Assembly: GCA_050178385.1 (NCBI GenBank)
Contig: JBFXGD010000105.1
Span: forward strand, 1-12,145
Direction: 5' to 3'
DNA length: 12,145 nt
Source of the DNA: Calditrichaceae bacterium
Lineage (GTDB): Bacteria; Calditrichota; Calditrichia; Calditrichales; JBFXGD01
Each line of letters opens with the position of its first letter. Position 1 is the first letter of the stretch. This document shows, in pieces, positions 1,997 through 10,709 of the stretch. Made by a program: the position numbers and the translations under genes. Under the pieces are notes generated by a model. The model saw only the letters and a list, made by a program, of their open reading frames with translations, was not told the DNA's origin and did no database searches.

Positions 1997-3025
1997 ATGT
2001 TAGTTGTTCTGAAAAAGAATGTTTCAGAAAATGAAATATTGACGATAAAGAATGCCATTAATTCTATGGGGATTGAATCCCGTCTTATGATTAGCGGTGA
2101 AAACAAGATTATCGGTACAACCGAAGTAACTCCGGGTATTGATGATGAGCTTCTGCGCCGGCTGGGGGGAATTCAGGACATCTTCCATAGCGCGAAGCCT
2201 TATAAACTGGCAAGCAGGGATTTTCATCCCGCGGATACCATTGTCAAATTGGGCGATTATCCAATAGGTGATCAGAGTTTTACCATAATCGCGGGTCCGT
2301 GCTCAGTTGAATCAGAAGAACAGATTATGAGGACCACGGAATTTCTGGCATCCAGGGGTATAAAAATAATGCGCGGAGGAGCGTACAAACCAAGATCCAG
2401 CCCTTATTCGTTCCAGGGACTCGGGAAGGCGGGTCTTAAATTATTGTCAAATGCCGCCGCTAAATTCGATATGAAAATCGTTACCGAAGCAATGGATCCG
2501 GTAAGTCTCATGGAAGTGGACGAATTCGCTGATATGATACAGATCGGATCGAGAAATATGCAAAATTTTTCTCTTCTGAAAGCCGCCGGCAAATTAAATA
2601 AACCCGTCCTGCTAAAACGCGGTTTCTCAGCGACGCTTGAAGAACTGCTTCTCTCCGCGGAATACATATTAAGTGAAGGAAACGGAAACGTTGTTCTGTG
2701 TGAAAGAGGGGTGAGGACATTTGACAGCCAGTCCCGCAACATGCTTGATATTAACGCCGTTCCCGCGTTAAAAGAATTGACACATTTGCCGGTGCTTATC
2801 GACCCCAGCCACGCCACGGGAAACCGGGATCGCATCATTCCGCTTTCGAGAGCGGCGCTCGCTGTCGGAGCCGATGGAATAATGGTGGAAGTTCATCCGC
2901 AGCCGGATAAAGCGCTCTCAGACGGTCCGCAGTCATTGTCATTTGATGGTTTTGATCAGCTTCTCGAACAGTTAAAGCCCATCGCCCGGGCTTTGAACAC
3001 ACAGATTAGAGGAATTCATGAATAA
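1997..3025 (+). CDS. aroF: 3-deoxy-7-phosphoheptulonate (DAHP) synthase, type I-beta, with N-terminal ferredoxin/ACT-like regulatory domain
   Basis: Motifs IAGPCSVES, RGGAYKPRSSPYSFQG, QIGSRNMQNF, KPVLLKRG, LCERGVRTF, DPSHATG and EVHPQPDKALSDG. About 70 aa N-terminal extension (MLVVLK...) as in Thermotoga-type enzymes. KPRS is the DAHP synthase signature, whereas KDO8P synthase has KANRS. Confidence 0.95.
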   Translation: MLVVLKKNVSENEILTIKNAINSMGIESRLMISGENKIIGTTEVTPGIDDELLRRLGGIQDIFHSAKPYKLASRDFHPADTIVKLGDYPIGDQSFTIIAGPCSVESEEQIMRTTEFLASRGIKIMRGGAYKPRSSPYSFQGLGKAGLKLLSNAAAKFDMKIVTEAMDPVSLMEVDEFADMIQIGSRNMQNFSLLKAAGKLNKPVLLKRGFSATLEELLLSAEYILSEGNGNVVLCERGVRTFDSQSRNMLDINAVPALKELTHLPVLIDPSHATGNRDRIIPLSRAALAVGADGIMVEVHPQPDKALSDGPQSLSFDGFDQLLEQLKPIARALNTQIRGIHE

Positions 3026-3830
3026 CAAATCTTATCCTGAACCGGTTGAAGCGCTGATACTTGTGCTGGCAGTGTTTGCCGGCCTGATTCTTTTGGCGGC
3101 GGTCTATGCGTTCATATCCGGCACACTGGTATCACCGGAATCAATCGAGAAAAATACCAGACTATTTTTTATTTTTGGCGGAAGCCTTTTTCTGATTATA
3201 CCCTTGCTGTATTCACGCGCGAAGAAATATCCCATTCAGTCACTTTTCCGTTTTAATCCGGTTTCTCCGGAAGTCATTCTTCTCAGCATAACAACCGGCA
3301 TTTCGCTCAGCGTTGTCGGTGATGAACTTGACCGTCTGTTGAGCAGGATCATACCCATTCCGGAATGGATCCTTGAACAGATGCGTCCGCTTGTGGTCGA
3401 AGGATGGACAGATTGGGCGCTTGTTATCGGCGGGGCGGTATTCGTCGCGGCAATTGCCGAGGAAGGGTTATTCAGGGGTTTTTTTCAGGTAACTCTGGAA
3501 AAAAAGGGCGATGCGACACGGGCAGTGATGCTTTCATCTCTGACCTGGACCATTATCCACATGAATCCTTACTGGGCGATTCAGATCTTTGTTATGGGGA
3601 TTATTATGGGATTTCTTGCCTGGCGGACGGATTCTATCATACCATCCATCATTGTGCACGGAACAAATAATTTTCTGGCTCTGATTATTATTAATTATAA
3701 AATTGATGAAAAAGCGGAATGGTATCTCTGGGGAGAACATGTATCGCCGGTTGTATTTATCGCGGCCCTCGCGGTTCTCGTGATATCTATCCGCCTGATT
3801 TCACAGTTTTATCAGCAGTCTCAGGAGTAA
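3018..3830 (+). CDS. CPBP-family (Abi / type II CAAX) intramembrane glutamic endopeptidase
   Basis: Multiple hydrophobic helices. Motif 1 EExxxR (AEEGLFRG), motif 2 variant WTIIH and motif HxxxN (VHGTNN). Start overlaps the aroF stop by 8 nt (ATGAATAA). Confidence 0.9.
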   Translation: MNNKSYPEPVEALILVLAVFAGLILLAAVYAFISGTLVSPESIEKNTRLFFIFGGSLFLIIPLLYSRAKKYPIQSLFRFNPVSPEVILLSITTGISLSVVGDELDRLLSRIIPIPEWILEQMRPLVVEGWTDWALVIGGAVFVAAIAEEGLFRGFFQVTLEKKGDATRAVMLSSLTWTIIHMNPYWAIQIFVMGIIMGFLAWRTDSIIPSIIVHGTNNFLALIIINYKIDEKAEWYLWGEHVSPVVFIAALAVLVISIRLISQFYQQSQE

Positions 3831-4464
3831 TTTCCTTCTCCTTCTTTCGGATAATCTTCATCAATACCTGCTCGGCGTTTATTACATCCATAGCGCTGGC
3901 ATTGTGCAGCGAATCCCATACGGCCTGCGGAGAAACACCTTCCTGCTCCGCTACACGCTCGTAGGTTCCCATCTCTTTGTATTTCCAGTATCGCTTAAAA
4001 TTGGTCTCGCTCCAGCGTCCCTTTATGGCATAAATCAACTGATAAAAAGTGTTAATATTTAAATCGAACCAATCGTCACCTGTACTAAACTGAACCACGC
4101 ATTTTTTCTTTTTACAGGTATTGAGCGCCGCGTTGGCGCGATGAAACGCGCGTCCGTCCATCTCAATCGGAATATTACTGCCCATTTTCTGGATGCTGCC
4201 GTAACCAATCCCGTAACGCATAATCAGCGGAAACAGAAGACGTTCGAACTCCATCATGACCGCATGCACATCCGCCACATTAAGCAAAACACCCTGAAAT
4301 TCATCACCCTTTGTGATCATGAACGGGGCATCTATACAATCGGCCCAGTTCTCGTTTACCTGAACAATCGCAGATTTCAGAAATAGCTGCCATTCGTACC
4401 TCTCCCTGTCGTGCATCTTTCGGGAACCTTTAATGTCGGCAATAATTACAGCATAAGGATTCAT
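3787..4464 (-). CDS. SatD-family protein (nucleotide-cyclase/GGDEF-like palm domain plus C-terminal helix-turn-helix)
   Basis: Family-typical blocks AVIIADIKGSR, FMITKGDEFQG, RYGIGYG and MDGRAFHRA. C-terminal HTH-like TYERVAEQEGVSPQAVWDSL. Confidence 0.85.
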   Translation of the reverse strand: MNPYAVIIADIKGSRKMHDRERYEWQLFLKSAIVQVNENWADCIDAPFMITKGDEFQGVLLNVADVHAVMMEFERLLFPLIMRYGIGYGSIQKMGSNIPIEMDGRAFHRANAALNTCKKKKCVVQFSTGDDWFDLNINTFYQLIYAIKGRWSETNFKRYWKYKEMGTYERVAEQEGVSPQAVWDSLHNASAMDVINAEQVLMKIIRKKEKEITPETADKTVKSGG

Positions 4465-5015
4465 GATAGCACCCAGCCAATTTTATACTCTGCGGTTATA
4501 TCGGTGATCCTCCTTATTTCGGTTTTTACTTTTTTTGCTCCGCATAATCTCAAACCTTCTTCAATAAAACCCAGTTCACTGAGACGAACCGATTCAAGAA
4601 ACGTTTGCCCGTAATCGATACTCACAGAATAAGAATTCGAATCAAGATCTTTAATTCTCATTTCTCCGCTTCCTATCAAAATCTTTCGCATATTTGACAT
4701 CTGTCTTAAAAAACCGCGTGGATTTCTGTCATCCATGTAAATCTGAAAGTAGCGGTGCATCAAATGACCCGCGTTCCAGTTACCAAGTAAAATAAAAGAT
4801 GATTCGTCATTGGCAAAAAATTCTTTCTGAATGTACTCATCGATTATTTTTAGATATTCTTCAGGATATTCTTTTGAAATACCAATCGGCTGAGTCAATT
4901 GATCTTTATCTTCACTTTTGACACTATCAAAAAATTGAATCAGTTTTTCCCGCCCGTATGTCTTTTCTATATAATCGAAACGCGATAAAATAACCAAGCC
5001 CTTAATTCCGCCCAT
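4461..5015 (-). CDS. Hypothetical protein of probable H-NOX/V4R-like fold (resembles DUF2378/TIGR02265 proteins)
   Basis: 184-aa ORF in the operon. N-terminal IKGLVILSRFDYIEKTYGREK, then YPEE, GNWNA, PRGFL and GFIEEGLRLCGAK, a pattern seen in H-NOX-like and DUF2378 proteins. The stop overlaps the SatD start (ATGA). The gene is well supported, the fold assignment less so. Confidence 0.6.
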   Translation of the reverse strand: MGGIKGLVILSRFDYIEKTYGREKLIQFFDSVKSEDKDQLTQPIGISKEYPEEYLKIIDEYIQKEFFANDESSFILLGNWNAGHLMHRYFQIYMDDRNPRGFLRQMSNMRKILIGSGEMRIKDLDSNSYSVSIDYGQTFLESVRLSELGFIEEGLRLCGAKKVKTEIRRITDITAEYKIGWVLS

Positions 5016-5042: not shown

Positions 5043-6218
5043 TTAAAATATTTGATTTAAAATCATTCCCTTTATTTTTTCCGTGTCACACTCCGCCGCA
5101 ATCCCCTGGGCAAATCCTTCAGGCCCGCCTCCGCGAAGATTGAGGGACGCGCCATGGGTTTTCAAAAAGTTTTGAGTGCTGAATTTTGAATCCGCCGGCG
5201 CTGTCAGATAAAAACGATCAGCAAATGTCATGAATGCTATTTTTGCAAACTTTCCGGACAATGTCCTGGCCAGATCCTGAGCGTCAGCCGGTTTACCTTC
5301 GGATAACCGGTGAACAATCAGAATACTGCCCGGGTCAGATTCATTAATGATGTCCTGACATTTACTGTCAATATAAGTTTGCCGGTAAAATTCCACATCT
5401 TTCCCGAGCTGTTCCACATCACTTTTCAGTCCCTGTACCCTTTCGACAATATGCTCTGTTTCGGAACTTAATTGATTTCTCAAACCGGTATTAAGCACAT
5501 GCAGCTGCTCAAAATAATCATCTGCTTTCTGGCCAATAAACGCTTTGATTCTCGCTCTGCCGCGTATTTTTTCCAGAGCGGTTATTTTAATATATCCTAT
5601 TTCCGCCGTATTTTTTACATGCGTTCCGCCGCAGGCTGAATAATCAATTTTTTCAATCTCAACCAGGCGAAGTGTTTGCCAGTCCCCGGCAGGCCTCCGC
5701 AGCGGAAATTTGTGGATATCTTCACGGCTGACCCACTGCCAGGATACCGGTACAGACTGACGAATGTACGCGTTGCTTTGTTCTTCAGCTTTTTTAAGCA
5801 GTCCGTCAACAGGCCACGCACCTTCAACTTCGATCAAAGTGTAGGAATCACCAAGGTGTACCGACACGGTTTTTTGTCCCAGTTGATCGAGCACATGAGA
5901 AAGAAGATGCTGACCGGTATGCTGCTGCATATTATACAATCGTTTTTGCCGGTCGATTTCCATACCTATATTATCACCAATCGAAAAATCAGAATCAGGA
6001 GCGAGACAGTGCCAAATTTGTTCATCTTCAATCCGGATACCGTTTATGGGTATACCATTTATTCTTCCTTCATCCCTGGATTGTCCGCCTCCCCCGGGAT
6101 AAAAAATCGTCCGGTCTGGAAGAACCCAAATACCATCCTTATCCATTTGTACATCAAGGATGGCGGCTTCAATCTGATGACAATCGCTGTCCTGATAATA
6201 TACTTTTTCTGTATTCAT
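5043..6218 (-). CDS. Alanyl-tRNA editing protein AlaX-L (free-standing AlaRS editing domain with C-Ala/DHHA1 domain)
   Basis: Gly-rich N-terminal DRTIFYPGGGGQSRDEG, Zn-binding HxxxH (QQHTGQHLLS) and CxxxH (SACGGTH), a coiled-coil linker and C-terminal RGGGPEGFAQG. There is no aminoacylation domain. Confidence 0.92.
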   Translation of the reverse strand: MNTEKVYYQDSDCHQIEAAILDVQMDKDGIWVLPDRTIFYPGGGGQSRDEGRINGIPINGIRIEDEQIWHCLAPDSDFSIGDNIGMEIDRQKRLYNMQQHTGQHLLSHVLDQLGQKTVSVHLGDSYTLIEVEGAWPVDGLLKKAEEQSNAYIRQSVPVSWQWVSREDIHKFPLRRPAGDWQTLRLVEIEKIDYSACGGTHVKNTAEIGYIKITALEKIRGRARIKAFIGQKADDYFEQLHVLNTGLRNQLSSETEHIVERVQGLKSDVEQLGKDVEFYRQTYIDSKCQDIINESDPGSILIVHRLSEGKPADAQDLARTLSGKFAKIAFMTFADRFYLTAPADSKFSTQNFLKTHGASLNLRGGGPEGFAQGIAAECDTEKIKGMILNQIF

Positions 6219-7721: not shown

Positions 7722-8294
7722 TCAGCCAATGAAATAAAATCTCATCGCGAAAACCATGAGAACGGCAAATTGCGCGTAAAAGGTGCTGCGCTCTGATTTT
7801 ATCGCGCCTTTTACATCTGGAATAAAATCTGACTTATTTTTATATGGTACCAGCTTCGGAAAAAATCTCGGAACATTTTCGAAATACTGCGAATATTCCT
7901 TACCGAATATTTCACTGAGTTTTCCTTCTTCCAGTTTTACAATAAAGTGATACTGTACAAGAGAGAAAATGAACATCAGGATCAGCGAATATGGCAGTAA
8001 GCTCCCGCTAAGAATCATAACACCGTTATACATTAACATATTACCCAGATACAAGGGATTTCTTACGAAGGCAAACGGACCGTTGGTCACAAGCTTTTTC
8101 GCGCCGACATTTCTTGTTCTTGTGGCGCCGCCGGCATAACTTACCCCCCATACTCGAATGACTTCCCCCAATATCACCATAAACACTCCGGTGAAGAACA
8201 AAATACTGTTGGGCTCAGCCCAGATTAAAGCAACAATTATAAAAGGGACAGGCAGATAGCCGCGTGTTTTGAATAGAATTTCTCCGAATTTCAA
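7722..8294 (-). CDS. Isoprenylcysteine carboxyl methyltransferase (ICMT/Ste14/PEMT) family membrane methyltransferase
   Basis: Hydrophobic protein with LVTNGPFAFVRNPLYLG, EEGKLSEIFGKEYSQY and VPRFFP, which are ICMT-family SAM-binding motifs. TTG start with AAGGA 6 nt upstream. Confidence 0.88.
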   Translation of the reverse strand: MKFGEILFKTRGYLPVPFIIVALIWAEPNSILFFTGVFMVILGEVIRVWGVSYAGGATRTRNVGAKKLVTNGPFAFVRNPLYLGNMLMYNGVMILSGSLLPYSLILMFIFSLVQYHFIVKLEEGKLSEIFGKEYSQYFENVPRFFPKLVPYKNKSDFIPDVKGAIKSERSTFYAQFAVLMVFAMRFYFIG

Positions 8295-10648: not shown

Positions 10649-10683
10649 CCTGATTAAAACGTATAATTTAACCTGATTAAAAC
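10649..10683. repeat. Perfect 12-bp direct repeat CCTGATTAAAAC x2 (10649-10660 and 10672-10683)
   Basis: Read directly from the sequence. Start-to-start period is 23 bp, immediately upstream of the GWxTD start codon. Confidence 0.8.
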
Positions 10684-10687
10684 ATCA

Positions 10688-10709
10688 AATCAAGTCATAT
10701 AACTTGATT
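10688..10709. promoter_or_regulatory. Perfect inverted repeat AATCAAGT-N6-ACTTGATT, candidate operator for a dimeric DNA-binding protein
   Basis: 8-bp arms at 10688-10695 and 10702-10709 with spacer CATATA, in the AT-rich divergent intergenic region. The repeat is read directly from the sequence. Its function is inferred. Confidence 0.5.

Follow-up and report, generated by a model that had tools for sequence, protein, structure and literature searches.

A phylum-wide SatD clade encoded beside a predicted heme-less H-NOX-fold protein in Calditrichota

The window analysed here, a stretch of 12,145 nucleotides (nt) from a Calditrichaceae bacterium of the phylum Calditrichota (contig JBFXGD010000105.1 of assembly GCA_050178385.1), carries on its minus strand a gene for a 184-amino-acid (aa) protein with a predicted H-NOX fold (5015-4461), followed by a gene for a 225-aa protein of the SatD family (4464-3787). 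A first-pass annotation, which had placed both open reading frames (ORFs) correctly, proposed that the two form a signalling module in which a small-ligand sensor controls a nucleotide-synthesising or nucleotide-binding regulator. A survey of 86 Calditrichota genomes (the window's own is designated G000) leads us to lean, if modestly, towards another reading: two co-transcribed, largely independent core genes, one of which would encode a nucleotide-binding helix-turn-helix (HTH) regulator and the other a heme-free pocket protein with a ligand of its own. What is new, as judged from the sequences, is a phylum-wide clade of SatD without the membrane partner, the operator array and the Arg111 of the family, and with an H-NOX-like gene adjoining it.

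Results

Each of the two genes is found without the other. Both occur in 60 of the 86 genomes, SatD alone in 16 (eight of family f2, seven of f8 and one of f6, the families being labelled f1 to f8), the H-NOX-like gene alone in six and neither in four; the two presences are hardly associated (phi 0.14, Fisher p 0.23, uncorrected for kinship), which does not support a dependent two-gene module. In G002, a genome of one closed contig with 98% completeness, the gene for an AlaX-like protein is followed by SatD and no H-NOX-like gene was found even by a broad profile, and G069 and G056 are without the H-NOX-like gene that their congeners retain. Conversely, in G025, G035, G040 and G048 the H-NOX-like gene is intact, a different gene comes after it, and a search that detects two SatD genes in G000 returned none of any kind. 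The count of six comprises four clear cases together with G044 and G078, where the gene lies at a contig edge; a true H-NOX paralogue in G045 and a 21-residue contig-end fragment in G050, probably a real copy, were left out of the H-NOX-like count.

Neither protein appears to relax where the other is missing. The distance of the H-NOX-like protein relative to two reference genes is 0.91 with SatD and 0.95 without it, and, of 18 columns without variation in 24 SatD-bearing copies, five SatD-less ones depart only at K5 (R in two), V8 (A in one) and Y93 (L in two). The relative distance of SatD is 0.63 with the H-NOX-like gene and 0.66 without it (0.34 within f2). The partial rate correlation of the two proteins is -0.07 over 231 non-independent pairs, below that of most other gene pairs of the block, and the rate covariation that a dependent module would suggest was not seen. 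Since each gene survives without the other, long-standing operon neighbours are a likelier description than the two parts of a signalling switch.

The SatD family is named after the streptococcal sat operon. The 225-aa protein matches the family model PF16264 with an E-value of 5.4e-20 (72.4 bits against a gathering cut-off of 29, model positions 1-193 of 211), and its AlphaFold2 model (predicted local distance difference test, pLDDT, 92.4) consists of a palm domain at about residues 1-147 and a C-terminal HTH at about 150-190, with helices at 153-188. Structure comparison by VIA gave the palm a Z-score of 13.4 for 3et6 and 13.0 for 2qv6, the values for class III cyclases, GTP cyclohydrolase III and GGDEF being 13.4, 13.0 and 12.2, respectively. 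In the model, residues 1-147 form a palm fold that is tied between these three families, none of which the score singles out; a cyclase/GGDEF-like palm had been expected, and the predicted structure (Z about 13) bears this out. In palm-fold cyclase and GGDEF families one metal ligand closes strand 1 and the other is in the turn between strands 2 and 3. The modelled D10 (ADIKGS) ends strand 1 and D54 (KGDEFQ) lies in the strand 2-3 turn, a placement with which a profile alignment to DosC, not itself significant (E 0.15), agrees. The two acidic motifs and the HTH had been pointed out by the first-pass annotation and were recovered here. D10 and D54 are invariant in the clade to which the window protein is assigned below, and they occur in 135 and 137, respectively, of 137 distant family members, so that both are a property of the SatD family and not of the pair.

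Profile comparisons of the SatD family gave HTH matches at E about 0.002 and weak matches to YlxM-type proteins (E 0.089). The GGDEF model of Pfam had no match to SatD at E of 1 or below, all 45 clade members carrying K/R-GDEF and not GG[DE]EF, and a profile search of the PDB yielded nothing significant for the palm; matches to gp120 and SipB in that search were rejected as chance. According to the accessible parts of PMC4886424 (on DUF2652, not SatD) and PMC4215837, class III catalysis also needs two residue pairs, Lys/Asp for substrate specificity and Asn/Arg for the transition state; the Asn may be His, as tolerated in Rv1900c. By motif order, the clade residues at these places are I50, E101, H108 and N/S111 (Asn in 33 of 45 members, Ser in 9, other residues in the rest). 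Ordinary SatD has His108 in 97 and Arg111 in 109 of 137 distant family members, and these may be the equivalents of the Asn/Arg pair; since the clade is without Arg111, its odds of cyclase activity are probably lower than those of the rest of the family. Two proteins of about 420 aa (P0112 and P0170) carry the SatD-HTH unit twice in a row, as would suit a SatD that works as a dimer. At one locus (L110, G037:C438) the clade SatD is split over two frames, by a frameshift or an assembly error.

The window SatD groups, on sequence, with a separate, slow-evolving and phylum-wide clade. In a quick tree, 15 clade members make up one side of a branch (Shimodaira-Hasegawa-like approximate likelihood ratio test 100) against 19 ordinary paralogues from Calditrichota. 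Of 1.84 billion representatives, no more than five clusters are at least 46% identical to the window protein, the next standing at 37%, and all 72 loci with a SatD of at least 45% identity are of the same locus type. The clade is present in 76 of the 86 genomes, at one locus each. An ordinary paralogue on contig C20 of the window's genome is 28% identical to the window SatD. In such ordinary paralogues, TATAAG-N7-CTTATA sites lie upstream and a coupled gene encoding a membrane protein of 240-270 aa lies downstream; on C20 (G000:C20:22678-22783; L031:1489-2897) four of these sites, at an exact 29-bp spacing, stand before SatD and a coupled gene for a 255-aa membrane protein.

Both of these features are missing from the clade. 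A membrane-partner gene was found within 3 kb at none of the 72 clade loci against six of eight outside loci, and the sole partner gene of the window's genome adjoins the C20 paralogue. The DUF3307 model of Pfam, which also misses the 255-aa protein of C20, had no match in five genomes or in 16 partner proteins; since the partner proteins match the partners of outside SatD genes, this miss reflects a limit of sensitivity. The TATAAG-N7-CTTATA sites occur at none of the 72 clade loci and at 14 of the 19 ordinary paralogues, the latter count being circular as the matrix was trained on them. A de novo dyad search reached a z of 8.9 in ordinary paralogues, against a clade best of 4.3 that appears in only 4 of 34 gaps. 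The recognition helix is of an AVWDSL type in the clade and AVSQ/K in ordinary SatD, and position 184 is D/E in 45 of 45 clade members versus mostly K/Q in the family; the structural residues of the HTH and Q180 are invariant in the clade.

The first-pass annotation had called the upstream protein an H-NOX/V4R-like sensor; the predicted fold agrees with this, and the residues of a heme sensor are missing. The AlphaFold2 model (pLDDT 93.9) matched 6bde in Foldseek (E 2.6e-8, template modelling score 0.72) and 4u99 in VIA (Z 16.6, root mean square deviation 2.5, 167 residues aligned), the match spanning the full length, while relatives of V4R and TRAPP scored lower (Z 8-10); a full H-NOX fold is thus predicted. 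Pfam matches of the 184-aa protein itself were below threshold (HNOB E 0.0045, DUF2378 E 0.058), and at E of 0.05 or below its 44 orthologues matched HNOB in 24 cases, DUF2378 in 22 (best 7.6e-7) and V4R in 9. The protein falls short of the TIGR02265 and DUF2378 cut-offs (18.5 against 25 bits and 13.6 against 22.2, respectively); its orthologues carry the source label "TIGR02265 family protein", and its nearest Atlas clusters include DUF2378. A PDB profile search with the family gave nothing significant for the H-NOX-like domain. An orthologue is present in the cultured Caldithrix abyssi. The window's genome has a second, distant TIGR02265-like gene on contig C302 (E 3e-10 to the orthologue profile).

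No His, and so no proximal heme ligand, was found at residues 97-117. The heme-His column was placed by aligning a true H-NOX of G049, in which the His (110-111) corresponds to His103 of the S. oneidensis structure; the position is R110/K111 in the 184-aa protein, and column 110 is Arg in 35 of the 44 orthologues, Tyr in eight and Phe in one, with a His present at column 112 in eight. Tyr stands at the heme-His position in orthologues of f5, f7 and f8. The motif YxSxR, known as the propionate-binding motif, is not kept either: the YSSPR stretch of the true H-NOX aligns to Y135-G-Q, and among the 44 orthologues Tyr is retained in 43, Q or E replaces the Ser, and the Arg is lacking. The accessible part of PMC7108781 describes the proximal His (His103 in S. 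oneidensis) as absolutely conserved within its H-NOX set and reports a three-Cys zinc site; such a site, in the C-terminal subdomain, is missing from the window protein, which has a single Cys (Cys158). A C...C...C pattern is retained in most orthologues of f5, f6 and f7 and is gone from the 184-aa protein and its order; this V4R-type Cys set (L063-L069, L077-L082) was lost separately in Calditrichales and in f8. As the heme His is missing, the protein is H-NOX-shaped but no heme-gas sensor by the usual definition. His-less and Cys-less H-NOX groups are known from the accessible part of PMC8738867, and DUF2378 proteins have so far been without a function according to that of PMC9257966. At one locus of G045 (L189:1879-4388, contig C7), two tandem H-NOX genes precede a hybrid histidine kinase, and the proximal His is present in one and apparently absent from the other.

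In the window, the two genes are the last of a seven-gene run on the minus strand, in which they follow genes for a GWxTD-domain protein, a Gfo/Idh/MocA oxidoreductase, a PEMT/ICMT-like methyltransferase, a cysteine-desulfurase-like aminotransferase (these four at 10640-6254, assigned by profile matches) and the AlaX-like protein (6218-5043). The gaps along the run are 6, 15, 52, 35, 27 and -4 nt, and the order of the first four genes is kept in f1-f4 and f6. The ATGA shared by stop and start (4461-4464, minus strand, read as tcATGAat) is real and is the tightest of the six junctions. An in-frame overlap of this kind occurs in 84 of 1459 close same-strand ORF pairs of the genome (5.8%, in a crude ORF set) and is therefore uncommon, yet not rare. 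The translational coupling that had been read from it is not kept in f5, f7 and f8, where mostly 21-430 nt separate SatD from the gene before it; the exact -4 overlap was seen in two of the 31 measured genomes of f1, f3, f4 and f6, both from the same genus as the window.

A candidate operon promoter, TTGATT-N17-TAAATT (10665-10693, minus strand), emerged from leader comparison, 10-12 of its 12 consensus positions being present in all 42 GWxTD leaders examined. It is likely the consensus housekeeping promoter of Calditrichota, and the pair is most likely transcribed from it as the last two genes of the operon; none of the 42 loci in which an AlaX-like gene precedes the pair reaches 11 of the 12 positions ahead of it. 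At five f8 loci without the H-NOX-like gene, the promoter stands directly before SatD. The same element recurs before other genes in f8. A perfect palindrome, ATCAAG-N8-CTTGAT (10689-10708), overlaps the -35 box of the operon and has just one other perfect copy in the genome (C41:11162). It was rejected as a conserved operator, as its left arm reaches at least 5/6 in only 8 of 42 leaders and it is absent from most SatD-bearing genomes; it could be the -35 box of a divergent transporter gene or a lineage-limited operator.

Discussion

In the reading that we moderately favour, both genes would be single-copy, vertically inherited members at the far end of a housekeeping-type operon. The clade SatD would be a domesticated paralogue of ordinary SatD, having lost both membrane partner and operator array. 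It would most likely act as a dimeric one-component regulator whose palm binds a Mg-nucleotide as ligand through D10, D54, R83 and K118, with little or no cyclase turnover, and the nucleotide-bound palm would set the state of the strongly conserved HTH, acting on sites elsewhere and not on its own promoter. The upstream protein would be of the TIGR02265/DUF2378 type, its heme-free H-NOX fold forming a pocket for a ligand of its own, and would have its own target.

Several observations weigh against this independence. In all 60 genomes with both genes, spread over seven families, the two are adjacent in the same order and on the same strand, so that the expected recurrence beyond close relatives was indeed found. 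Their adjacency is better kept than that of SatD with a convergent CAAX protease gene, the synteny control (66 of 74 genomes with both), or that of the AlaX-like with the H-NOX-like gene (48 of 54), and the pair stays intact where AlaX has been left behind (two genomes) and where CAAX has been (f6). The two genes are separated by -8 to +4 nt in every one of the 31 genomes measured in f1, f3, f4 and f6, and none of 22 gaps between them holds an internal promoter. In f8 the pair is a stand-alone unit with a perfect promoter of its own in 7 of 12 loci without a preceding AlaX. A search of nearby DNA, at 72 loci and in 42 leaders, gave no operator for the clade HTH, which leaves DNA binding by this HTH an assumption; the rate tests use pairwise distances among kin, are weak and miss small interfaces; and the residue roles in SatD were assigned from motif order, not superposition.

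These points leave room, tentatively, for an optional sensor-regulator module, which we consider a possible but clearly less probable account. Here the H-NOX-fold protein would have become an input to SatD once the clade had lost its membrane partner: with a small ligand in the empty heme pocket, it would dock on the SatD palm and tune nucleotide binding or turnover, and hence HTH output, each protein retaining a basal function alone. The strict adjacency, the tight junction in four families and the f8 bicistron with its own promoter all suit such a link, as does the loss in the clade of the downstream membrane partner that ordinary SatD has. The accessible part of PMC8738867 adds that H-NOX genes usually adjoin the kinase or cyclase that they regulate and that groups without the His and the Cys exist. 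The 22 genomes that hold only one of the genes speak against it, together with the lack of relaxation and of rate correlation and the wider gaps in f5, f7 and f8. No fusion of the H-NOX-like protein was found among 7112 longer candidate proteins (a weak test), and the pairing was not seen outside the phylum in eight genome and five metagenome loci of ordinary SatD, a small sample scanned with clade-biased patterns. As to a special linkage of the module, flanking genes are almost as stably linked: the pair shows no breaks against two or three in the control links, where some misses are contig breaks, and this difference is too small to show selection.

Sensor-controlled nucleotide synthesis, the full model of the first-pass annotation, is unlikely. 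It would make the pair a split, soluble and heme-free counterpart of the soluble guanylate cyclase layout, in which an H-NOX-fold sensor of a small molecule switches an active palm enzyme that also carries an HTH. One protein would then both make the signal and deliver the transcriptional output, an arrangement for which, improbably in our view, the Calditrichota ancestor would have swapped the SatD membrane partner for a cytoplasmic sensor. Known systems offer partial parallels. H-NOX sensors of Shewanella, Legionella, Paracoccus and Vibrio, with adjacent diguanylate cyclase/phosphodiesterase or histidine kinase genes (accessible part of PMC8738867), have the same full-length fold. The hinge Gly of a true H-NOX is in register with G78 of the 184-aa protein, whose gene directly precedes one encoding a cyclase-type palm, reminiscent of the H-NOX plus cyclase architecture of soluble guanylate cyclase. 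Unlike them, the 184-aa protein is without the proximal His and YxSxR and shares 10-16% identity with them, its neighbour is an HTH protein with a predicted palm, and the two genes are lost independently. Class III cyclases, GGDEF proteins and GTP cyclohydrolase III have the same palm (Z 11-13.4) with two Asp in equivalent places, but the clade SatD shows no recognisable Lys/Asp specificity or Asn/Arg pair, has K/R-GDEF instead of GG[DE]EF and carries a fused HTH.

Ordinary SatD proteins score above the Pfam cut-off as the window protein does and share with it palm and HTH and the D10, S14, GDEFQ and MDG motifs; the window SatD differs in having no partner and no array, a replaced Arg111, another recognition helix and an H-NOX-like gene upstream. 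With TIGR02265/DUF2378 (PF09536) and V4R proteins the 184-aa protein shares labels and weak profile matches, and its f5-f7 orthologues a V4R-like Cys set, whereas it is itself below both cut-offs, has lost that Cys set and comes as one orthologue per genome in a fixed place.

It is quite doubtful that the true partner of the H-NOX-like protein is the AlaX-like protein, for instance in sensing an amino acid or thiol state, with SatD a bystander. Their presences are associated more strongly (phi 0.64; 54 genomes with both, 18 with neither) than those of SatD and the H-NOX-like gene, they are adjacent as counted above, they overlap by -4 or -8 at 15 of 42 junctions, to which the overlap shifts in f5 and f7, their partial rate correlation is 0.34, and they were lost together in G056 and most of f2. 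Yet AlaX was found in none of 16 f8 genomes (E of 1e-42 or below), and in nine of these the H-NOX-like gene still lies next to SatD; G002 and G013 have AlaX without the H-NOX-like gene, and the two are split apart in G012 and G031. The joint loss may be one deletion of neighbours, and kin are not independent.

Least probable, and in our judgement very unlikely, is that the clade SatD has ceased to regulate transcription, its acidic-helix HTH binding protein or RNA and its palm being a housekeeping nucleotide-binding or nucleotidyl-transfer enzyme. The acidic residue at position 184, the lack of nearby operators save the patchy palindrome, the score of GTP cyclohydrolase III on a par with cyclases (Z 13.0) and the weak YlxM-type matches would fit this idea. 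Against it stand the invariant HTH structural residues and Q180, the operator arrays that clearly accompany ordinary paralogues, and the restriction of the site search to nearby DNA.

A defence-system reading was rejected, as SatD has no PADLOC match and occurs in 76 of 86 genomes at one locus, not patchily, and so was a mobile-element reading of the pair. In the accessible descriptions, mCpol/Panoptes anti-phage signalling also uses small palm-fold nucleotide enzymes with a partner gene; SatD differs from these by the missing PADLOC match, the missing effector gene and its core vertical inheritance, and no mCpol structure is among the 50 fold matches listed for it. The upstream protein drew a single weak JAB match from PADLOC (E 0.0046).

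SatD proteins are widespread and have their two-metal palm site intact, and we found no published activity for the family. A literature search, in which subscription journals were mostly uncovered and supplements excluded, returned no biochemical study of SatD or of DUF2378/TIGR02265 and no description of the pair, and the accessible part of PMC10326533 merely repeats an acid-tolerance label for SatD. The clade constitutes a natural experiment, being soluble, partner-free, single-copy and conserved across the phylum, and an ordinary SatD cassette is often present in these genomes for comparison (Arg111 versus Asn, recognition helix), which makes it easy to test whether SatD makes or merely binds a nucleotide. 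If the H-NOX-like protein controls SatD, this would be the first partner and function for heme-less TIGR02265/DUF2378 proteins; if it does not, the two are a conserved pair of uncharacterised core genes.

Other Features of the Locus

The AlaX-like tRNA-editing protein (391 aa, 5043-6218, minus strand, assigned by profile matches) is under every NCBIfam cut-off and longer than AlaXM. The convergent gene for a CAAX/Rce1-like membrane protease (3018-3830, plus strand; PF02517, E 1e-20) overlaps the 3' end of SatD with its own 3' end by 44 nt, and an antisense effect of this overlap or a functional link of SatD with this membrane protein is conceivable. A DAHP synthase gene (1997-3025) and the PEMT-like gene (7722-8294) are patchy insertions in a block that is otherwise fixed.

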